IMG/VR virus record: IMGVR_UViG_3300029787_000028
Coordinates: 45,138-65,137 of that record
Length of the DNA stretch: 20,000 nt
Direction: 5' to 3' (one strand)
Origin: an uncultured virus (IMG/VR IMGVR_UViG_3300029787_000028)
Lineage: Duplodnaviria; Heunggongvirae; Uroviricota; Caudoviricetes; Crassvirales
Positions within the stretch are counted from its first letter, which is position 1. The number at the start of each line of letters is the position of its first letter. This document shows, in pieces, positions 1-20,000 of the stretch. Made by a program: the position numbers and the translations under genes. A model generated the notes under the pieces. The model was given only the letters and a program-made list of their open reading frames with translations, had not been told where the DNA came from and did no database searches.

Positions 1-210
1 ATGGGCAGCGATGTCAAGCTGGCTAAGCTTATCAGACCAGTCACTTTGATCGCATTGATGAGCATGTTTATGGTGACTATGTTTATAGACAGCATGGACA
101 ACGTCGCATTTAACGTCAAGGATTCTTATGTAGATTTGTTGCAGGTTTTAATGCTAACAGCATTTGGTGCATACTTTGCTGGTCGCACCATAGAAAAGGC
201 AAAAAAGTAA
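1..210 (+). CDS. Putative holin (3TM/GTA-type holin-like), probably 5'-truncated by the window edge
   Basis: SDxKLAKLIRPVTLI...AYFAGRTIEK with two hydrophobic segments and a basic C-terminus. This resembles the SD-x-LSKNIRP...YFGGRS-EK pattern of 3TM phage/GTA holins. Confidence 0.7.
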   Translation: MGSDVKLAKLIRPVTLIALMSMFMVTMFIDSMDNVAFNVKDSYVDLLQVLMLTAFGAYFAGRTIEKAKK

Positions 211-213
211 GTC

Positions 214-1038
214 ATGAAAGTCAGGTATGAACATGGTGGTGAGCACGATCCAATCAAGCAGATCTTAGCAAATCAGTTGGCGGCTGACAGGGCAGACCTT
301 GGCTTTTCTGCAAGCCCCTCAATGCAGTTGTATGGGTTTGAAGATGGGCCCGTCAACATGAGACCAGACTTGCTCTTAGATGTTTTGGGTGGGCCTGCAA
401 CGGTTAAGGCAGGTGTCCAGGGCATCAGACAACTCATGAAAAAAAGCCCAGAGCTTTACAAAAAGTTGATGGGATCTGGAACTAAAGTAGTAGATGATGC
501 TGCAAAGCAGGGTGGATTTGATCCCACAGATATTGCTGCTTTGAGGAAAGATGGGGTTTCTGAAGAAGAGATCATGAAGCTTGTGAAGGGCCCCCAAACA
601 AAGATGACAAAGAAAACTGCTGACAACACTCAGGCTTACATAGAGCGCATGAAGAAGCAGAAGGTTCAGAATCAAGCCAACAGAGCTCTAAGAGAAGCGG
701 CACGGGACGAATCTCAGCAATTCATAAATATGCAAAGAAGACTTAGCGAACTTGGGATGGAGGCTGCGGAAGCAGAAAAGATTGCACAAAAAATCTTCAA
801 AGAAAACGTAGATGACATCTTTACTCAGGCAAGAATAGATGACATGGTGCTTGGTAAGGGTGATCAACTGGCGAAACAGCTTGGACCCACTATGCAGGAG
901 CTGTACAAAACAAACAGGGGTGTGTTCGATGCCATTTATAATGAGCTCATCCAGCCTGTTACATCTAAAAAAATAAGCGGCGCGGTGAACCCACGCATGA
1001 ATCAGTTTGGTGGCAAGATAAATGTGAGAAAGGCATGA
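214..1038 (+). CDS. Hypothetical helical protein with N-terminal RYEHGGEHD motif, possible internal virion/ejected protein
   Basis: 274-aa ORF rich in K/Q/E/A. N-terminal YEHGG and C-terminal QFGG motifs. The stop overlaps the next start (ATGA). Confidence 0.6.
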   Translation: MKVRYEHGGEHDPIKQILANQLAADRADLGFSASPSMQLYGFEDGPVNMRPDLLLDVLGGPATVKAGVQGIRQLMKKSPELYKKLMGSGTKVVDDAAKQGGFDPTDIAALRKDGVSEEEIMKLVKGPQTKMTKKTADNTQAYIERMKKQKVQNQANRALREAARDESQQFINMQRRLSELGMEAAEAEKIAQKIFKENVDDIFTQARIDDMVLGKGDQLAKQLGPTMQELYKTNRGVFDAIYNELIQPVTSKKISGAVNPRMNQFGGKINVRKA

Positions 1039-3176
1039 GGTGTTTGTTGTTTATGCTTCTCCCTTTGTTTGCTACTGCTCAGACAGGGTGGGTCTCTATC
1101 TCTATACAGGGTGATGCATACGGCAACGAAACCACATGGCTACTTCGTGATTCCAGCGACGCAATTGTTGCAGGATCTGCACCCCTGCAGGGGGAGTATC
1201 CCTATGTTGAGGCTTTTCTTCCTCTGCCTGTAGGTGATTACACCTTTACTATCTACGACTCTTTTGGTGATGGCATTTGCTGTGACTTTGGTGAGGGTTG
1301 GTTCTCAATCAACACTTGCGTCTTAGACACCACGGTGTACGACTTCAACGCCTCAGAGCAAACCATTCCGTTTGAGGTGCTGGCATGCCCCCCACCAATC
1401 TTTGGATGCATGCAGCAGGGAGCTCTGAACTACCATCCCTGGGCAACCGCCCCTGCACCCTGCGACTTCCCTCCTGTACAATGCGAAGAAGGATACAACA
1501 ACATCCTTGTCACAGTTACGCCTGATACTTATGCAGCTGAGATCAGCTGGGATCTAATCACAATCCCAGATGGTGAGGTCATTGCAGAGGGGTCAGGCTA
1601 TTCTATTGTAGGGGCTCCCATTGTAGAGGCTGTATGTCTGCCCATTAGTTCAGAGTTCAAGGTAAACGTGTACGACACATTTGGTGACGGCATGTGTGGT
1701 AGCTGCTATGGCGGAGTGGATGGCAACCTACTTGTTTCCAACCTATGTGGAGAGACACTGTACTACGTAGGCGACACCACACAGTACGAAGTAGTGTCAA
1801 GTGATACTATCGTGATCGACCCATGCTTCCCGCCCATACCTCAGGGATGCACAGACTCGTGGTTTACAGAGTATGACCCTGGTGCTGTTATCGACGACGG
1901 TAGCTGCCAGACAGAAGTGATATTGGGATGCACTGATCCTCAAGCAATTAACTTCAACGAGGATGCCAACACACTAGAGACAGAGAACAACTGTGACTTT
2001 ACTCTGACACTTACAGACGGCGCAGGCGATGGATGGTTTGGCAGCTGGATTGGCGTGCAGCAAGGTGACGAGATCTGGGGGCCTCTTACGATGCATCCTA
2101 ACGATGAGTTTGAGAAAGAGATTCAGATTCCCCTTTACTCTGGAGAGGCAGTCAGGGTCATGTTCTTTACGCAGGGCAACGCTGAGACAACAGCTTCACA
2201 GTGTGGTTTCTACTTCGATGGACCCAACGGTGTATTCATGGAAGGCGGAACCAACCCATGGTCAGACGCCATCAAAAAGTTTCCGTTCAAGTACGATGGT
2301 GTGCCTGTGTGCGGAGACTTCTGCGAGCCTGCTATCATGGGCTGCACGCTTAGCTTCGCCTGCGACTACAACCCTGAAGCAAACGTTGACGGTGACTGCA
2401 CGTTTCCTATCGAGTACTATGGATGCGACAACGAGTGCATCAACGATGCTGACGGCGATGGAGTCTGTGATGAGCTGGAGGTCGAGGGGTGTCAGGACTC
2501 AGAGGCATACAACTACAACGAGGATGCCACTGATCCAGCTGATTGTGAGGACGTTGTGTTTGGGTGTACAGATCCCATCATGTTTAACTACAATGAGGAG
2601 GCGAACACTGAGAACAACAGCTGCGTGCCGTTCATCTACGGATGTACGATCCCTGAGGCACTGAACTACGACCCTACTGCCAACACCAACAACGGTAGCT
2701 GCGAGCTACCCATGCCTGGGTGTATGGACCCTGACGCTGCCAACTACAACGTGTACGCCAACGTACCTGCGAACGAGGACTGCCTGTATGATGCGGGGTG
2801 CATCACTGGTCCTGGCGAACCATACTGGGCCAACGACTACTGCTACTCGTGGGTGATTGAGGTTGATCCCTACTGCTGTGAGGTAGGATGGGATGCCGTT
2901 TGCATTGAGATGCACGAGTACTGCAGCCAGGGTGTAACCAATGTCGAGGCTCTGGGCTACAACTCAATTCAGATATGGCCCAACCCAACATCTGGTGTGC
3001 TCAACTTCCAGGCCCCCGCAGAAGCATTTGCAGACGTTTACAGCCACTCTGGGCAGCTTCTGATGTCATGGCAAGGAGATAGAGAGATAGACCTTACATC
3101 GCTGCCTAACGGCTTGTATGAGATTGTCATCAACTACAAGGGCAGAATTAGGGTTGAAAGAATCGTGAAGCAATGA
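1035..3176 (+). CDS. Secreted Cys-rich repeat protein with C-terminal T9SS type-A sorting domain
   Basis: Signal peptide MRCLLFMLLPLFATA|Q. Repeated YDxFGDG-type modules. Eight GCxDxxAxNYxxxA...C-type repeats and a DADGDGVCDE Ca-binding-like motif. C-terminus IWPNPTSG...IDLTSLPNGLYEIVINYKGRIRVERIVKQ matches the Por secretion tail pattern (YPNP...LxxGxY...KxxK). Confidence 0.85.
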   Translation: MRCLLFMLLPLFATAQTGWVSISIQGDAYGNETTWLLRDSSDAIVAGSAPLQGEYPYVEAFLPLPVGDYTFTIYDSFGDGICCDFGEGWFSINTCVLDTTVYDFNASEQTIPFEVLACPPPIFGCMQQGALNYHPWATAPAPCDFPPVQCEEGYNNILVTVTPDTYAAEISWDLITIPDGEVIAEGSGYSIVGAPIVEAVCLPISSEFKVNVYDTFGDGMCGSCYGGVDGNLLVSNLCGETLYYVGDTTQYEVVSSDTIVIDPCFPPIPQGCTDSWFTEYDPGAVIDDGSCQTEVILGCTDPQAINFNEDANTLETENNCDFTLTLTDGAGDGWFGSWIGVQQGDEIWGPLTMHPNDEFEKEIQIPLYSGEAVRVMFFTQGNAETTASQCGFYFDGPNGVFMEGGTNPWSDAIKKFPFKYDGVPVCGDFCEPAIMGCTLSFACDYNPEANVDGDCTFPIEYYGCDNECINDADGDGVCDELEVEGCQDSEAYNYNEDATDPADCEDVVFGCTDPIMFNYNEEANTENNSCVPFIYGCTIPEALNYDPTANTNNGSCELPMPGCMDPDAANYNVYANVPANEDCLYDAGCITGPGEPYWANDYCYSWVIEVDPYCCEVGWDAVCIEMHEYCSQGVTNVEALGYNSIQIWPNPTSGVLNFQAPAEAFADVYSHSGQLLMSWQGDREIDLTSLPNGLYEIVINYKGRIRVERIVKQ

Positions 3177-4207
3177 GATACCTCGCAACCACATTGCTGT
3201 TGTTGATCACCTTCAACGTGTCAGCACAGGCAGTAAAGAAAGCATTTAAGTTTGCCACCTTCTACACCGCCTTCAGTGGTGGTAACTCCCTGTCAGACAG
3301 AGAGGTCTTTTCTGTGGCCAACGGCTTGCAAACTGACATTGTAGAAACTCCGTTTGACTTTGCCCTTACTGCAGGCGTTCGCAAGATCGCACGCTTTGGA
3401 TACGAGAACAGAGCCAACACATTCTACAACGGAACAGAGAAGTCTTACGGAGACGCCGCCACCATTGGTAAGGTGAGTGGCTTTGAGTTCTTGTTCGAGG
3501 GAGACTACAGGAGACAGCAAGGGGTCAACTACCTAGACCAAGACTACTTCCTTAGGTATGTGGCTGACAAGTGGATCACCAAGGTGGAGTTCCTGCAGGA
3601 TGGATTCGCTGACGTCAGGTACTTCGAGGCATCCCAGAGAGCCAGGGTCAAGCTTGGTAAGCTGTCCCTCAACGCTGGAATCATGCAGAGATTGTCAGAA
3701 CCCTATGGTTACGATCCTTTGAACGAGTGGTTGCTAGACAACAATCAACTTCATTTTACTTCACTCGCTCTGCAAGAGGGATACGATATTGATGTGAACA
3801 CAGGTGAGTTCTTCAGCCCTGATGGGACACTCGTTGCTAGTAGCTACGAGGTGTGGGAGGAAGTTGTTATCCCCCAGGCGCTCGAAGATTACGTGAGCAA
3901 GAAGCGTGGAGAACTGGACAATCAATGGGTTCATTCTGTGGTGGTTGGCTTTGACTACTATCACTTCACCAAGAACTTTTGGGTGCATAGCTGGGCCAAC
4001 CTGATCCCCTACCACCTAGACACAGATGGAGAGTACTCGTATCATAGGTTTGTTAACAGCGGGCAGTGGATAGACTACTCTGGGGGTCTTATATTTGGTA
4101 AGAGGTTCAATAAAAGTTTTGGTGTATTCGCAGAGGGTAAGTATCATAAGTACTGGGACAGGTCATGGCACGACTTCTCTCTGGGAATCAACTATGTAAT
4201 AATTTGA
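3173..4207 (+). CDS. Predicted outer-membrane beta-barrel protein of unknown family
   Basis: Signal peptide ending VSA|Q. Aromatic-rich alternating strands (GFEFLFEGDY, KWITKVEF, SVVVGFDYY, SFGVFAEGKY). The terminal strand FSLGINYVII resembles a BAM beta-signal. Coupled to the upstream gene by ATGA. Confidence 0.65.
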   Translation: MRYLATTLLLLITFNVSAQAVKKAFKFATFYTAFSGGNSLSDREVFSVANGLQTDIVETPFDFALTAGVRKIARFGYENRANTFYNGTEKSYGDAATIGKVSGFEFLFEGDYRRQQGVNYLDQDYFLRYVADKWITKVEFLQDGFADVRYFEASQRARVKLGKLSLNAGIMQRLSEPYGYDPLNEWLLDNNQLHFTSLALQEGYDIDVNTGEFFSPDGTLVASSYEVWEEVVIPQALEDYVSKKRGELDNQWVHSVVVGFDYYHFTKNFWVHSWANLIPYHLDTDGEYSYHRFVNSGQWIDYSGGLIFGKRFNKSFGVFAEGKYHKYWDRSWHDFSLGINYVII

Positions 4208-4208
4208 T

Positions 4209-4493
4209 ATGGCTCAGCAGATAGGGGAGGATACGAAGATCACACTAGACCTAAAGACCATAGGTATGGCAGCCGCAGGGATTGGCACAATCGTAGCCAT
4301 GTGGTTCGCCCTGCAAGCAGACATCGCAGAGGCAAAGGAACTGCCTGTCCCCCCATCTCCAGATATCACGCGCATGGAGTTTGACATGAAGGATCAGCTA
4401 GTCCGTCAGACAATCATGAGTACACAAGAGGATATCACTGAGATAAAAGAAGACATTAAGCGTATCGAAGAAAAAATAGATCAACTCAGATGA
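4209..4493 (+). CDS. Small single-pass membrane protein with C-terminal coiled coil
   Basis: TM segment TIGMAAAGIGTIVAMWFAL, Pro linker LPVPPSP, heptad tail ITEIKEDIKRIEEKIDQLR. Starts 1 bp after the upstream stop. Confidence 0.75.
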   Translation: MAQQIGEDTKITLDLKTIGMAAAGIGTIVAMWFALQADIAEAKELPVPPSPDITRMEFDMKDQLVRQTIMSTQEDITEIKEDIKRIEEKIDQLR

Positions 4494-4496
4494 CCT

Positions 4497-4859
4497 ATGA
4501 AAGCTTTAGCCACCTGCATACTAATCTTACTTTTTTCCGCCGCAACATACGTTTCTGTACCTGCAGAGGATGAAGTTTGTGAATCAGGTATTTGCGTAGT
4601 AGAGTTTAACGCGAGCTTCAATGCTCAAAACAGTGTAGAATGGATCGAAAGCCTCAGCGACTGCGTCACAAACCGTGTAGACATTGCCTCTGCACCAAGC
4701 CTTCAGCAGGAGCACAAGATTGTGGTAGTACCCACGATCGTTGTATTCAACGAGGGAGAGGAGGTGAAGAGATTTCAGGCGAACATCATGATGACGATGG
4801 AGGCCAGCAAGGATGACGTACAGGGGGCCATCGACGAAATATTGATGAGCGACTTCTAA
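4497..4859 (+). CDS. Exported thioredoxin-fold protein lacking canonical CxxC
   Basis: Signal peptide. VVEFNASFN sits where Trx has VVDFWAxWC. RVDI strand, and IVVVPTIVVFNEGEEVKRF matching the Trx cis-Pro/C-terminal motif (xPTxxxFKxGxxVxR). Confidence 0.7.
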   Translation: MKALATCILILLFSAATYVSVPAEDEVCESGICVVEFNASFNAQNSVEWIESLSDCVTNRVDIASAPSLQQEHKIVVVPTIVVFNEGEEVKRFQANIMMTMEASKDDVQGAIDEILMSDF

Positions 4860-4860
4860 C

Positions 4861-5364
4861 TCAGTATTTTTTATCGTACTCCCAAACTCTGTATGACACC
4901 AGAGTCTTGATGTCGTGAAGCTTGAGAAGAGAGATGACGTCTTTCTTCCCCTCCCTTGTGTATCTCTTTAGGTAGGCGTTCTTGTACTTGGTAACTGCCT
5001 CGTCAGAGACGTGCTTCTCGCAAAAGAATGCCAGCTCTTGCCTGTCTACTATGACAAACCCCCCTTCTTCTGGCATGTCGAACGCGATGATGGTGGCACC
5101 ACCGTATAACCAACCTTTGTTCCCTCTCACGTTTGTAAACTCACACCAGATTTGATCTGGAAGGTTGTTGCCCTTGACATCGACACCCCACCGCTTGCCT
5201 GCTGGCGACATAGCCAACCAGTAGTCGATATGCTCATGCATATCCTCCGTGTGACTGGACTTGGTGACCAACAGCCCCTTGTGTCTGGCTGCCCTGAGAA
5301 ACCTTATCTCTGCGACCCTGCCAGTGCTTGACTGATACTCACTGCGACTTGGCTTGATGTTCAT
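4861..5364 (-). CDS. Putative PD-(D/E)xK-family nuclease (phage protein)
   Basis: GRVAE...HIDYW...VDVKG motif spacing, followed by WxEF..NVRGNKGWLYG. Convergent with the + arm across a 1-bp gap. Confidence 0.6.
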   Translation of the reverse strand: MNIKPSRSEYQSSTGRVAEIRFLRAARHKGLLVTKSSHTEDMHEHIDYWLAMSPAGKRWGVDVKGNNLPDQIWCEFTNVRGNKGWLYGGATIIAFDMPEEGGFVIVDRQELAFFCEKHVSDEAVTKYKNAYLKRYTREGKKDVISLLKLHDIKTLVSYRVWEYDKKY

Positions 5365-5557
5365 CGATCAGAGTTTTAATCAGGTCAAGCTCCTGATAAA
5401 TTTTGCTTTTGCTTTCGAGCACCTCTCGATACACCTTTTCAAAGTCCTCTTGTGGATAACCCTGGTTGTCGTGTATGGCTTCATACAAGTCATCTACGAC
5501 CTCATGGATGCGGTCGCAGGCAAAGTGATACATCCAACTAAGCTCAGATCTCTCCAT
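5339..5557 (-). CDS. Hypothetical protein
   Basis: 72-aa ORF overlapping both neighbours in the co-directional operon. Confidence 0.6.
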   Translation of the reverse strand: MERSELSWMYHFACDRIHEVVDDLYEAIHDNQGYPQEDFEKVYREVLESKSKIYQELDLIKTLIDEHQAKSQ

Positions 5558-5999
5558 TCTTAATAGATGCTAGTATTTCCTGGATGGCGTGGTCCACTTG
5601 CTCCCTGTTCTTAGCTAAAAATACAACATCTGGGGCCTGTTTCTCCACCAAATGTTTGAGGAACAGCTTCCATCTCATGGGGAAGTCATGATGCGATGGC
5701 AGATACCCTTTCGTTTCTATGACCCACGCATGATCCTTACCCACAAAATCAGGCTTGTATGTGATGGGCAGCACAACAGAACCTGTCTTGTCCGTCATGT
5801 GCTTTGCCCTAGCCGTCATCTTGAAGTACTTGTTGGGATATCGAAACTTGTCTTGCAGTTCGTAGGTGTGCTCTTCATAATCGAAAGCCAACCCATTCTG
5901 TTTCAGTTGATCCGCACAATACTTTTCGATTGCAGATGCGTATCTTCCCAAGCTTTTCTTTCGAGAGGTCTTTCTGCTCCTCTTCGCTTTCTTTCGCAT
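5544..5999 (-). CDS. T7 endonuclease I-like Holliday junction resolvase
   Basis: YASAIE...FDYE...ITYKPDF...VIETKG matches the endonuclease I pattern SxLE/YE/YxPDF/ExKG. Lies directly downstream of the primase-helicase. Confidence 0.8.
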   Translation of the reverse strand: MRKKAKRSRKTSRKKSLGRYASAIEKYCADQLKQNGLAFDYEEHTYELQDKFRYPNKYFKMTARAKHMTDKTGSVVLPITYKPDFVGKDHAWVIETKGYLPSHHDFPMRWKLFLKHLVEKQAPDVVFLAKNREQVDHAIQEILASIKNGEI

Positions 6000-6015
6000 G
6001 AGTCAATATACACCA

Positions 6016-15389: not shown

Positions 15390-15551
15390 TTAGTGGTTGG
15401 TGGGGTTGACTTCCCACACTTCGTCGAGATGATACCTGTGCTTGCGTTTCATATATTGTATGAAGTTATCATAGTGGTTCTTGTCACGGAATGTTTTACT
15501 AATAGTAAACTTCCTGCCATAGGGGATGATGAACTGAATTTTCAAGTCCAT
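15390..15551 (-). CDS. Small hypothetical protein (53 aa, not in ORF track)
   Basis: MDLKIQFIIPYGRKFTISKTFRDKNHYDNFIQYMKRKH...*. Confidence 0.55.
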   Translation of the reverse strand: MDLKIQFIIPYGRKFTISKTFRDKNHYDNFIQYMKRKHRYHLDEVWEVNPTNH

Positions 15552-16144
15552 AGCTCACGAATCATAAGCCATACGACGGCCTGCAAATGTGCAGGTGCAT
15601 ACCCCATGTCATGTGACATACGTTGGAACCTGCGTTCCATGATGTCATACTGCTTGGGTGTGACGGTGGTTTCAAGGGGCTTGCGCTTGTTTGATACACT
15701 TTGGAATGCCAATAACATCCATGAATCAATTGTAACAGCATTCATGTCTTTTGCACCCACATTTAGAGCGAAGCGATGGGTCTTTCGACTCGTTTCTTGG
15801 ATTGACTTGGTGCCTTTGGCAATGTTGAAAGCCTTGATTTTGTTCGTGTCAAATGTCGAACACTTCACCATGTCATGTGATACGTTGTCACGAACTGCTT
15901 GACATACGTTCCATGCGTCAATCTTGTTGCGTTCCCACTTGTTTCTTGGGGAGAGGGCTGAGATGACACCCCCTGCCATAACAGGGGAGATGTCAAACTT
16001 GTTAGCCATACTCAAAGCGAACTGCTGGGCTTCGTCATACCATACGAGGCCGTCTTGCTTCATGTCATGTGATGCCATGTCATGCCAATGTGATACGTTA
16101 CGCCGCATCTTGGACAGCGTCTTGTCAAATGTTTGTGGATTCAT
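15542..16144 (-). CDS. Phage protein resembling the HhH-GPD DNA-glycosylase-like superfamily
   Basis: WYDEA...ISALSPRNKWERN...KTHRF...VTIDSW...QY...LQAVVW pattern. Likely start MNPQTF (16144). Confidence 0.55.
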   Translation of the reverse strand: MNPQTFDKTLSKMRRNVSHWHDMASHDMKQDGLVWYDEAQQFALSMANKFDISPVMAGGVISALSPRNKWERNKIDAWNVCQAVRDNVSHDMVKCSTFDTNKIKAFNIAKGTKSIQETSRKTHRFALNVGAKDMNAVTIDSWMLLAFQSVSNKRKPLETTVTPKQYDIMERRFQRMSHDMGYAPAHLQAVVWLMIRELWT

Positions 16145-16293
16145 TGCTGTTGATTGTTCAAGTATGCCAAAGCATTCTTGATGGTGGTACATTGTGGCAC
16201 ATTTTCTGTTGTGCCGTCAGTGAAGTGCAACTTGTTGAGTTCTGGGGCATATGCATGGCGCTCAAGCCCAAGGATAGGATGGATTCTTTTCAT
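16141..16293 (-). CDS. Small hypothetical protein (50 aa, not in ORF track)
   Basis: MKRIHPILGLERHAYAPELNKLHFTDG...*, ATGA-coupled on both sides. Confidence 0.6.
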   Translation of the reverse strand: MKRIHPILGLERHAYAPELNKLHFTDGTTENVPQCTTIKNALAYLNNQQQ

Positions 16294-18459: not shown

Positions 18460-18985
18460 CCCTCTTCTTACTGCGCGATTTTTCCCGCGTGAAGGTTACG
18501 AAGTAACCCGTGCGAAAACAGGCGAAGAAGTGGCCTCGCGCCCAAGCATCATGCGGCGTATGTGCGAGGTTCGACGTTGTTAGTGTTAGTTGGTTGGGAT
18601 AGTCAATAGCAAACCCTGTACGTTACTGTATGTGGTCCTTTGGACTGCGCGTGGTAAGGCGTAGGGGTTTTGTCCCCCTGATGGAATTGTCAATACTTTC
18701 CAGGGATTTGGCAGGGCCTTGGCCTTTCTCTTCCGTTGTTAGAACCCCTTGGGGTTCCAACAAAGCTGAAAAGATGTGGCAAAGTTGACCAAAGGTCAAG
18801 GGGAGGGGGGTCTCGCAGCGCATTTGTGTATGCAGGTGTAGACGTACACAGGTGTATATAATCCCCACGGTGCGTATTTCTCCGCTTTTTTCTCAATGAT
18901 CGTTCGCTCATCGACTTCGAGTGGGAGCATTAACCACAGCCTGATCAAACACTTACACCCTGTTGCTTCTAGTGGCTGTTCAGGG

Positions 18986-19016
18986 TTGACTTTTAAAATT
19001 TTCTAGTATAACTTTG
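18986..19016 (+). promoter_or_regulatory. Bacteroidota promoter, also matching the sigma70 -35/-10 pattern
   Basis: TTG(18986)-20 nt-TAACTTTG(19009-19016), with overlapping TTGACT...TATAAC. Confidence 0.65.
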
Positions 19017-19145
19017 CTAAACTATTTAGAAGGTTGTCACTGTACAGATGGTTGTGTGTGCACACAAAGCTGATGCGCGTACTCTCGTGGGTAACAACTA
19101 TTACTATAACGCAGGGATAGCTGTGTTTTGTGCGTAACCAGGCTG

Positions 19146-19175
19146 TTGTAGTCCTCTGCAGAACGTTTATATTTG
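19146..19175 (+). promoter_or_regulatory. Bacteroidota promoter immediately before ATG 19181
   Basis: TTG(19146)-19 nt-TATATTTG(19168-19175). Confidence 0.65.
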
Positions 19176-19180
19176 CAGGT

Positions 19181-20000
19181 ATGAGATCTAAAGTCAAGAG
19201 AAAGCGTGGTTTGCAGCCTATTAAGAGGTATGAGCATGGTGGCCCGCATGATGTTCTTGGAAATCCTATCCCACCAGCATCCAGGGCTGACACCGCTAGG
19301 CTTGTAAGTGCGGGTCAGGCGCAGATGCAGGAGCTTTTAGATCAGGGGTATATTCCTTTTGGTGAGTCAGCCATTAAAGACACTGACACCAGAACAGACT
19401 GGGTTAGTGCTGATAGAGGATTCTTTGCAGATAACAGCATACTTCTAGGTGAGATTGAAGATGCCATGCTTGAAAAGCCATGGTTGGCGTACAAGATGTA
19501 TCCTCCTGGATATTCTGCATTGGTTGCAGATGATCTGGACTGGAGCAGCGGATTCTTTTCAAAGTACGCTAGGAAGGTAGAGAAGTTTGTTGAAGACAAC
19601 CAGAGGAAATACTTTAGAGATCGCCCATTTAGTCAACTTAAAGAAAGTCTAGAAGAACTTTTAGAAAACAAAGATCAGAGCTCTTTCTACAGAGTAACGC
19701 AATCTTTAAACAGATTTGTAGATCTAGCCAAGCAGTTTCCTGGGAGAAATGACGATATGCTTTATACAGAGAGCATAAAGGATGCTGTTGGTGATTTGAG
19801 ATCTTACGATCAAAAGCTAGAACGACTTAATGCAGTTCAAGATTTTGCTGAGATCCCCGTTTTCCCATTGGACGACGAGGGCAACAGAAGAAGACAGACT
19901 GTAGAAGAAGAGTACGGGAGGTCTATTGACAGCTCTCCTGCGAAATTTGGAGGCACAAGATCTAAAGAAGATGCTCGATTCTACAGAGAAATTAACAGAT
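19181..20000 (+). CDS. Hypothetical protein with RYEHGGPHD motif, 3'-truncated (missing from ORF track)
   Basis: Frame translated by hand is open from ATG 19181 to the window end: MRSKVKRKRGLQPIKRYEHGGPHDVLGNPIPP... Confidence 0.8.
   Translation, partial: MRSKVKRKRGLQPIKRYEHGGPHDVLGNPIPPASRADTARLVSAGQAQMQELLDQGYIPFGESAIKDTDTRTDWVSADRGFFADNSILLGEIEDAMLEKPWLAYKMYPPGYSALVADDLDWSSGFFSKYARKVEKFVEDNQRKYFRDRPFSQLKESLEELLENKDQSSFYRVTQSLNRFVDLAKQFPGRNDDMLYTESIKDAVGDLRSYDQKLERLNAVQDFAEIPVFPLDDEGNRRRQTVEEEYGRSIDSSPAKFGGTRSKEDARFYREINR

Follow-up and report, generated by a model that had tools for sequence, protein, structure and literature searches.

The question raised by this locus is what a phage does with four consecutive genes whose products all carry export or membrane signals. 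The source genome (G000) is that of an uncultured marine phage of flavobacteria, a phi38:1-like podovirus of 65,137 bases (CheckV 100%), and the window designates here the whole stretch analysed, i.e. 20,000 nucleotides covering positions 45,138 to 65,137 of the record. The terminase and capsid genes that the earlier note looked for on the same contig are present, together with the portal gene. A genome-wide search detected no PF00589 integrase and no tRNA was found by scanning. The ORF calls agree with the described series of four adjacent genes, named A to D (Table 1): A and B share an ATGA overlap (3173-3176), one base separates B from C and three bases separate C from D. As had been noticed, the series lies between a holin region and replication genes. 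The holin belongs to phrog_3427 (E 3.8e-15 for the in-window part and E 1e-21, more exactly 1.2e-21, for the whole gene), and convergent replication genes, including a primase/helicase assigned to phrog_18375, are found from position 4861. The 274-aa ORF, joined to A by another ATGA overlap, displays no family match in Pfam, NCBIfam or PHROG and no BLAST match in 81 related loci, where the holin often directly abuts A. The endolysin gene is localized far from the module (genome positions 2172-2651). Over positions 1-6000, neither the promoter scan (5 vs 6.4) nor the terminator scan (6 vs 4.8) departed from chance.

Table 1. Features of the locus, numbered from the first position of the window.
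Feature	Positions	Strand	Product or residues	Remark
Holin gene, 3' part	1-210	+	148 aa (whole)	start upstream of the window, genome position 44901
274-aa ORF	214-1038	+	274 aa	variable insert between holin and A, outside the conserved module
Gene A, T9SS cargo (predicted)	1035-3176	+	713 aa	
A, Cys-rich helical cap	2793-2924	+	about aa 587-630	best conserved element ahead of the CTD
A, predicted type A T9SS C-terminal domain (CTD)	2964-3176	+	aa 644-713	TIGR04183 and 8glk_D overlay
Gene B, predicted outer-membrane beta-barrel	3173-4207	+	344 aa	
B, best conserved segment (RKIARF motif)	3380-3478	+	aa 70-102	long basic loop after strand 2
Gene C, predicted single-helix membrane protein	4209-4493	+	94 aa	
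Gene D, predicted exported thioredoxin fold	4497-4859	+	120 aa	

All four genes, with the junctions between them, are confirmed. Contigs from four public runs of one study bridge the junctions holin/insert, insert/A, A/B, C/D and D/replication. No bridging piece for the B/C junction is among those listed from these runs, and this junction recurs in relatives. Two objections foreseen by the earlier note, a chimeric assembly and an ordinary chromosomal operon, are rejected. The A-B-C-D set is almost phage-only.

Judging from sequence and model, protein A is an elongated acidic fibre rich in Cys. Its T9SS signal is truly of type A, as the first reading of the DNA had proposed. Its C-terminus passes the TIGR04183 profile (29.2 bits for a cut-off of 23); the score with Pfam PF18962 (24.8) is below the cut-off of 27, which is exceeded by six of the seven long relatives scanned. 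The modelled C-terminus overlays the type A CTD of NucA (8glk_D) with a Z-score of 11.8 and an rmsd of 1.3 Å over 70 residues, and the next two fold matches are also CTDs; the protein thus terminates in an Ig-like CTD fold of seven strands. The CTD is the only part of A giving recognisable matches in the fold search, and no catalytic domain was recognised. Ahead of it, a putative signal peptide is followed by three domains of beta-sandwich type (about aa 17-115, 154-255 and 319-422), seven Cys repeats of the form GC..A.NY and the helical cap, in which C589, G594, Y597, C603, W606, I608, C614, C615, W619, C623 and C630 are invariant in 48 rows. A contains 40 Cys and bears a net charge of -97 over aa 16-636. 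According to hydrophobicity and alignment, the basis on which every signal peptide and the C helix were assigned, the N-terminus is signal-like and ends in A-x-A-Q, Q16 being invariant in the 48 rows. The relatives of A range from 649 to 1222 aa, and a CBM48-like insertion occurs in some of them. In one Flavobacteriales family, 51 of the 61 genomes match the profile of A, mostly at the repeats; among cultured phages (50,697 records) A gives short repeat or CTD matches only.

B is predicted to be an outer-membrane barrel, as had been suspected, of no known family. The AlphaFold model (pLDDT 85.9) shows a barrel in which 12 long strands were counted, and every top fold match is an outer-membrane barrel; they have no specificity, with a best Z of 9.6 and many ties, the top Foldseek match being a weak one to the 12-stranded porin NanC (E 1.7e-4). 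A C-terminal beta-signal is present; of 126 rows, 114 have a Tyr four residues from the end. A helical insertion (aa 176-250) is probably extracellular. Within the RKIARF loop, R70, K71, R74, Y77, G87 and E89 are invariant in 126 rows; judging from strand order this loop would be periplasmic or luminal and is a candidate partner site. A Cys after residue 30 is absent from 89 of the 126 rows. B has no match in Pfam, NCBIfam, PHROG or the 50,697 records of cultured phages, and its 36-row profile recovered no PDB sequence up to E 10. In the ESM Atlas it falls in a viral cluster without name. Its homologs number 3,318 at 90% clustering; one of them stands alone among housekeeping genes in a Flavobacteriales MAG (L314).

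C displays one predicted transmembrane helix (aa 17-35), in agreement with the membrane anchor proposed earlier, followed by a Pro-rich hinge, an EFDMKD motif and a coiled coil. Its PHROG search gave only a weak match to phrog_1009, its nearest ESM Atlas clusters are viral and without family, and one of the seven C-family proteins scanned matches an Rz-like PHROG, at E 0.036 only. D appears from its sequence to be an exported thioredoxin fold without CxxC. It matches thioredoxins, as expected from the Trx-like assignment, with 51 PDB sequences recovered (best E 1.9e-7), and keeps the cis-Pro position (P79, invariant). The thioredoxin active site is replaced and shortened, and any CxxC occurs in one of 126 rows; one Cys (111/126 rows) and an aromatic C-terminus are retained. 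No match to D was found among the 50,697 records of cultured phages. The complex prediction of B with three copies of C(36-94) and D, with D as the partner, scored 0.39, against 0.47 for a control with B replaced and 0.00 for controls with D replaced; it gives no verdict and is counted neither for nor against binding. Paired coevolution (126 rows, effective 68) was too shallow, its top inter-protein pairs including impossible ones, and was left unused.

The synteny is conserved in phages, all four genes being kept in 69 of 74 close-relative loci. Among 79 distant loci, 49 contain B-C-D with a small cargo bearing a short-CTD-like tail and 30 contain B-C-D without cargo. TIGR04183 was found in none of 19 cargo-less whole contigs, many of them incomplete, and in 8/8 controls. 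The cargo occurs beside the trio in the orders ABCD, BCDA, CDAB, BaCD and BCDa, and it is modular and variable (CBM48-like, LDLa-like, beta-sandwich). C immediately precedes D in nearly every arrangement, spacer genes are often inserted between B and C, and the set shifts as a block between genome positions in phages of 29-158 kb. The six near-complete relatives chosen by their terminase all carry B. G420 (complete, 88.7 kb, with terminal repeats) has the order C-D-holin-like-M15, with neither B nor another barrel candidate; G157:C58 shows C-D-M15-holin with no adjacent B; and in G445 (85% complete) a divergent C, placed after the holin, is all that is present. From these three gene contents, B is dispensable in some phages. 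The module of G439 is situated between the portal and capsid genes, and some 23 kb separate it from the holin.

The occurrence is therefore nested: C alone (G445), C-D (G420, G157:C58), B-C-D and A-B-C-D. The earlier note had given the cargo the central place in the unit; what is conserved is instead B-C-D, or C-D, and this core follows lysis genes, a linkage which that note did not weigh. On the best reading A is a swappable extra rather than the core. Two roles assigned to the partners are also unsupported. Since D lacks CxxC and is retained in cargo-less phages, it is not a redox folding helper for the Cys-rich cargo. Since a type A signal uses the host PorV and B persists in phages without cargo (and without TIGR04183), B probably does not serve as a dedicated shuttle of the T9SS. 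The nesting would also suit a loose cluster, in which C is a common helix-plus-coil holin co-factor and the late envelope morons D, B and A have gathered beside it without forming a single complex; the spacers that often split B from C and the solitary cellular B point the same way. We consider this very unlikely, as C directly precedes D nearly everywhere and the set moves as a block. Furthermore, all 126 D proteins of B-carrying loci have F or Y within three residues of the end, whereas D of the two B-less cassettes has lost the aromatic end.

A holin or endolysin is found within 1.5 kb of the module in 38 of 42 lineages (80% clusters), and in 32 of 42 when only library-supported families are counted, for 14-28% expected by position; the count is biased upward because lysis families were first found in the same neighbourhood. 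In close relatives, a lysis gene lies within this distance in only 42 of 70 loci. The neighbouring endolysins are unrelated (M15, amidase_2, phrog_33083-like and, as a candidate, DUF5675) and the holins differ too, as expected of a partner-independent step. No lipoprotein was detected in the coding frames of G000 with strict and loose lipobox patterns, and the same scan detects lipoproteins in host contigs. The only membrane or exported candidates seen in G000 are the holin and A-D.

We tentatively prefer, at somewhat less than an even chance, the reading in which B-C-D takes the place of a spanin and the surface protein A is an accessory. B, C and D would form a late-expressed, phage-specific envelope set performing the outer-membrane lysis step in phages without lipoprotein spanins. 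C would be the inner-membrane anchor, its coiled coil reaching into the periplasm, B would be inserted into the outer membrane by the host BAM, and D would act as a redox-dead periplasmic adaptor linking C and B. Once the holin and the endolysin had cleared the wall, a B-D-C bridge would fuse or tear both membranes. A would be exported by Sec and the host T9SS via PorV, displayed on the infected cell, and possibly rest on the outer helical domain of B. On the best reading, each layer thus receives one protein (A the surface, B the outer membrane, D the periplasm and C the inner membrane), with the topology of C presumed.

Several observations run against a spanin role. The part of C beyond the helix, putatively periplasmic, is only 59 aa long and its charge bias is weak (-1 on the N-side, -6 on the C-side). 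B is missing in G420, the G439 module is distant from the holin and the endolysin of G000 is distant from the module. The cellular homolog of B in L314 is standalone. Finally, a spanin role gives no reason for the cargo staying beside the trio through several gene orders.

This last point keeps alive, as a rival, the surface complex favoured by the earlier note, which nevertheless yields first place to the spanin substitute. In its most developed form, A or a small cargo placed on B would bind sibling virions or an outside cue, and D and C would relay the signal inward, delaying lysis or blocking superinfection. Such a chain is somewhat unlikely. It would account for the cargo linked to the trio in 69/74 close and 49/79 distant loci, for its variable modules, and for the supply of one protein to each envelope layer beside holins; a periplasmic antiholin acts in T4 (bioRxiv 2025.11.12.688109), and phage-encoded T9SS cargo has been suggested to act in superinfection exclusion (PMC7468147). 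It has to face the 30/79 distant loci without cargo, the differing holins paired with the trio, and a common holin apparently made of two helices, without the large periplasmic domain used by T4 T. The absence of integrase also leaves no lysogen to protect, although lytic phages can exclude too. The T4 lysis inhibition system (T holin, RI, RIII, Spackle; bioRxiv 2025.11.12.688109) shares with the module an exported periplasmic and a membrane protein beside holin action, and with the relay the delay of lysis. The surface receptor is proper to the relay. No sequence link was found, the holins differ, and the T4 system contains neither a barrel nor a surface cargo. A true relay would be a phage-built signalling chain from the cell surface to the lysis clock.

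The infected cell could also show A as an adhesin, sticking to particles, polysaccharides or new hosts before burst, while B, C and D anchor A or load vesicles. The fibre-like nature predicted for A, its repeat stalk resembling host proteins (51/61 genomes) and the CBM48-like domains of some relatives would fit. We hold this decidedly unlikely, because the host can anchor type A cargo with no barrel devoted to it (PMC12635249), the trio is also kept where cargo is absent, and the lysis linkage is left unexplained. Highly improbable, lastly, is that the proteins are built into particles or that B is a porin feeding the infected cell: the late-operon location (sometimes between portal and capsid genes, as in G439), the weak NanC match and the porin-like genes of other phages speak for it, but the proteins bear a beta-signal, a T9SS signal and signals of Sec type, which direct them away from cytoplasmic assembly, and the fold matches of B are generic.

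Compared with two-component spanins (lambda Rz/Rz1; PMC6139136), the module shares a presumed inner-membrane protein whose N-terminal helix is followed by a coiled coil, a predicted partner in the outer membrane, the siting beside holin and endolysin genes and the pairing with unrelated lysis enzymes. It differs by the absence of a lipoprotein and of any significant sequence match, by an outer part predicted as an integral 12-stranded barrel, and by the addition of a soluble Trx-fold protein and an optional T9SS cargo. Kongari et al. raise the possibility that an OMP replaces the o-spanin and report 91 of 677 genomes without recognisable spanins, including Bacteroides and Croceibacter phages (PMC6139136). 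The module bears on the open question of how such phages get through the outer membrane; B-C-D may be an undescribed way of breaking this membrane, and its named genes allow a direct test of an integral outer-membrane protein in the spanin role. The module is common in phages of the main oceanic polysaccharide degraders. Whether for lysis or for sensing, these phages would exploit the host BAM and T9SS.

The earlier statement that no characterised phage system has this architecture stands for the trio, since no paper describing a barrel-coil-thioredoxin set was found in the literature, supplements aside. It does not stand for the cargo: the 'Cryophage' (Bellas et al. 2020, PMC7468147) carries type A CTDs, variable between variants, with a proposed use of the host T9SS. 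Those cargos are an endoglucanase, a GH39 and a PA14 protein, whereas A is without recognised catalytic domain, and a barrel, anchor or Trx partner is not mentioned in the accessible portion of that paper. In T9SS, type A cargo uses PorV and type B an SprF-type barrel (PMC12635249), and a cargo gene adjoining a barrel gene is a shared trait. The differences lie in the type A signal of A, in the persistence of B without cargo and in its lack of sequence membership. Its fold match to PorV (6h3i_F: Z 7.2, rmsd 8.1) is one of many comparable rows and ranks below the TamA, OmpG and OMPLA rows.

The small-cargo tails appear to share motifs B, D and E with short spacing with the short CTDs of Prevotella intermedia (PMC11969387), in that source the only species reported with both CTD lengths. 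They contain Y-x-x-x-G and G-x-Y-I plus a basic residue, some after T-I-G-I; 42 of 43 fit this pattern, written after seeing the tails, for 0.02% of shuffles. Unlike those of P. intermedia, these putative signals are found in marine phages and a marine MAG, and they have no TIGR04183 match, their long-CTD profile score not exceeding that of shuffles.

Cultured phages offer another kind of candidate. The phages phi38:1, phi14:2 and Panino have no match to B or D, and each encodes a protein (gp084, g076 and CDS0090, respectively) with an N-terminal membrane helix and C-terminal beta-strands ending in a beta-signal, which would make them one-piece, spanin-like candidates joining both membranes. 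A search with the three proteins recovered phi38:1, Calle and phi14:2 only. The same detector applied to 10 B-carrying genomes recovered B (8/10), one antisense ORF and nothing else. A still broader scheme is unlikely: a trans-envelope machine, made by a widespread class of marine Bacteroidota phages, of inner-membrane coiled coil, dead thioredoxin, barrel and swappable T9SS cargo that breaks the outer membrane without lipoprotein spanin while a surface ligand times lysis, with an inverted one-piece spanin in cultured Bacteroidota phages. The gp084 of phi38:1, which provides a cultured comparison, and g076 are each encoded directly after the endolysin. As phi38:1 carries a helix-plus-coil protein, gp082, as well as gp084, C could be a holin co-factor.

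The record is a linear phage genome of 65,137 bases (CheckV 100%), of which the window forms the final 20 kb and in which no PF00589 integrase was found. It also carries terminase, portal and capsid genes, a point that the earlier note had left to be checked. The gene order (GroES, terminase, portal, capsid, tail, large structural genes) matches that of Cellulophaga phage phi38:1 (Pervagoviridae). Among cultured phages, the primase/helicase finds its best matches in Maribacter phage Panino and in phi38:1. The late strand terminates with the module (holin, 274-aa insert, A-B-C-D), followed by convergent replication genes. The ORF calls reproduced the four genes with their ATGA overlap and gaps of 1 and 3 bases, as first described. 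Contigs of four runs, all belonging to a single study, span the junctions holin/insert, insert/A, A/B, C/D and D/replication; among the pieces listed, B/C is unbridged. The motif [KR][FY]xxGG, possibly a packaging or cleavage tag, is found in 4 of the 49 ORFs on the late strand, always near the N-terminus, and in none of the 30 early ones; many small basic late proteins of relatives have it as well.

Of the loci detected with B, C or D, 74 non-redundant ones have 4.5 kb on both sides. All four genes are present in 69 of these 74; the others contain BCD (3), AB (1) or CD (1). A search with 15 distant barrels added 79 loci, none with the long A-type cargo: 49 encode a small exported protein (a) and 30 have no cargo. 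Of 19 whole contigs that carry a cargo-less locus, none matches TIGR04183, the profile of the T9SS type A C-terminal domain (CTD); all 8 of 8 long-cargo controls do. The orders found are ABCD, BCDA, CDAB, AABCD, BaCD, BCDa, CDBa, BCD and CDB. C-D occurs without B in one complete genome (G420) and one contig (G157:C58), and a lone divergent C follows the holin in G445; the sets form a nested series (C, C-D, B-C-D).

Out of 4,821 candidates, 3,318 are homologs of B, and 80 of its 104 viral matches were kept. Neither B nor D found a match in a cultured phage. In relatives selected through their terminase, B is present in 11 of 20 contigs, including all six that are at least 90% complete. The cellular genome contigs scanned contained one locus, on a 43,296-base MAG contig equal in size to an IMG/VR virus record. 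Profile searches of that MAG's order detected B in 2 of 401 genomes and C in 4 of 301; two of the contexts of C look phage-like and one ends next to a cellular-type peptidase gene. A Flavobacteriales MAG (G060) encodes a lone B homolog and a broken fragment.

Clustered at 80% identity, the 284 loci that carry the whole trio (B, C, D) come down to 58, of which 42 have a 2-kb flank. A holin or endolysin (families labelled from Pfam and PHROGs) lies within 1.5 kb in 38 of these 42 lineages (long cargo 11/14, small 14/14, none 13/14, the last including L023, with A 2.7 kb upstream), a count that leans upward since the lysis families were first found in the module neighbourhood. Without two families lacking a lysis label, 32 of 42 remain linked. 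At 95% identity, 83 of 113 clusters are linked, and only 42 of 70 with long cargo. For a block placed at random in ten whole contigs, the chance of such proximity is 14-19%, rising to 21-28% within the late genes.

From its N-terminus, which is signal-like, A runs through three beta-sandwich domains and seven GC..A.NY repeats to a conserved Cys cap and, last, the CTD. As the earlier note had claimed, A is a type A T9SS cargo: its CTD scores above the TIGR04183 cut-off and its model superposes on solved type A CTDs. Phage genes for such cargos are already published (PMC7468147). The repeat stalk is host-like: in one marine Flavobacteriales family the A profile matches 51 of 61 genomes, almost all at the repeats. 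Of the 49 small cargos, 35 have an LDLa-like head and 12 a domain homologous to the beta-sandwich of A (E 1.4e-8); the others were recognized by profile. Their C-termini form a short tail resembling the short CTDs of Prevotella intermedia (compared with PMC11969387), and marine MAG proteins end in similar tails; TIGR04183 matches neither group. These sequences suggest that short T9SS signals occur beyond Prevotella. In five loci (L094, L097, L107, L109, L217) A is followed in tandem, before B, by another T9SS cargo of 411-521 aa whose start is CARDB-like.

B was modelled as a barrel (pLDDT 85.9; 12 long strands by our count), in agreement with the earlier note. Fold searches returned generic barrels, apart from one strong match to an unnamed viral protein (TM 0.83), and establish no kinship to PorV or SprF (as defined in PMC12635249). 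Strand order in the model would place the most conserved stretch, aa 70-102, on the periplasmic side. In C, a Pro hinge lies between the single helix and the coiled coil. D has the thioredoxin fold that had been proposed for it, without CxxC. Within three residues of its C-terminus, D has F or Y in all 126 B-carrying rows but in neither of the two B-less cassettes (G420 and G157:C58; n = 2 only).

Taking the folds, signals, distribution and lysis linkage together with a topology, contacts, timing and function that we infer, the most likely reading, still a tentative one, is that C, D and B would link the inner to the outer membrane and complete lysis, A acting as an accessory surface protein. 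Against it, B is missing in some phages, the lysis link is looser among close relatives and the linkage to cargo is left unexplained. The main rival would have a chain for surface sensing or exclusion set the time of lysis, in analogy to T4 lysis inhibition (bioRxiv 2025.11.12.688109); it appears somewhat unlikely. Display of an adhesin is unlikely, a loose cluster of the genes quite improbable and a virion or porin role very unlikely. The B-C-D set may work like spanins; it is not a member of them, since it contains no lipoprotein. No lipobox protein in coding frame was found in the genome under study, where the only envelope candidates seen are the holin and A-D; short lipobox ORFs occur in the B-carrying genomes G417 (63 aa) and G439 (47 aa). 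Kongari et al. count Bacteroides and Croceibacter phages among the spanin-less ones and consider an o-spanin role possible for an OMP (PMC6139136); the account of the Calle endolysin by Bartlau et al. places two TMD proteins nearby and names no spanin there (PMC8776804). Our literature search returned no description of the B-C-D trio.

A simple detector (N-terminal membrane helix and C-terminal beta-signal) retrieved exactly one protein in each scanned part of phi38:1 (50 of 72.5 kb), Panino (50 of 77 kb) and phi14:2 (8.5 kb). These proteins of about 200 aa, annotated "hypothetical", have C-terminal beta-strands closing with the beta-signal, and directly follow the endolysin in phi38:1 and phi14:2 (2/3). 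They are candidate inverted one-piece spanins and, lying in cultured phages, are testable. Applied to ten B-carrying genomes, the same detector retrieved B in eight; its one other hit was an antisense ORF.

Coordinates of the features (L, locus; G, genome; C after G, contig)
Feature	Position	Remark
M15 endolysin	genome 2172-2651	
[KR][FY]xxGG ORF	window 214-1038	274-aa insert
[KR][FY]xxGG ORF	window 19130-19999	
[KR][FY]xxGG ORF	genome 1453-1851	
[KR][FY]xxGG ORF	genome 36536-37714	
DUF7178 protein	window 15542-16192, minus	among early genes; E 2e-34
Few ORFs	window ~18460-19130	divergence point of the minus (early) and plus (late) strands; probably a control region or the end of the genome
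One-piece candidate	L340:21650-22249	phi38:1 gp084
One-piece candidate	L422:3971-4549	phi14:2 g076
One-piece candidate	L341:25540-26142	Panino CDS0090
Short-tail phage protein	L241:8971-9480	
Short-tail phage protein	L243:8661-9209	
Short-tail phage protein	L276:8296-8976	
Short-tail phage protein	L309:6966-7898	
Short-tail marine MAG protein	L315:996-3014	host
Short-tail marine MAG protein	L315:3065-5158	host
B homolog	L314:9379-10593 (G060:C35)	404 aa; among housekeeping genes
B-homolog fragment	G060:C25:16681-16941	amid T9SS cargo genes
Second, small barrel	L235:9696-10103	weak OMP_b-brl match
Second, small barrel	L236:9764-10183	weak OMP_b-brl match
Lengthened C (208-224 aa)	L244:8092-8766	distant locus
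Lengthened C (208-224 aa)	L298:6852-7478	distant locus
57-62-aa protein	L113:5441-5629	and relatives
387-aa membrane protein	L178:2084-3247	and relatives

Several neighbouring genes were also observed. Both second outer-membrane barrels, together with a 74-aa two-helix protein, come after the endolysin in cargo-less, siphovirus-like loci. The 57-62-aa protein (MxxNWINSW...RF.I.NFGFEI), which matches no family, recurs in 14 of 144 non-redundant close loci, where it lies within the module or next to it; distant loci have it as well. The 387-aa multi-helix membrane protein with a long coiled coil, possibly another envelope-spanning protein, is present in 21 of the 144 loci, downstream of the module, after an amidase and holin 4_1.
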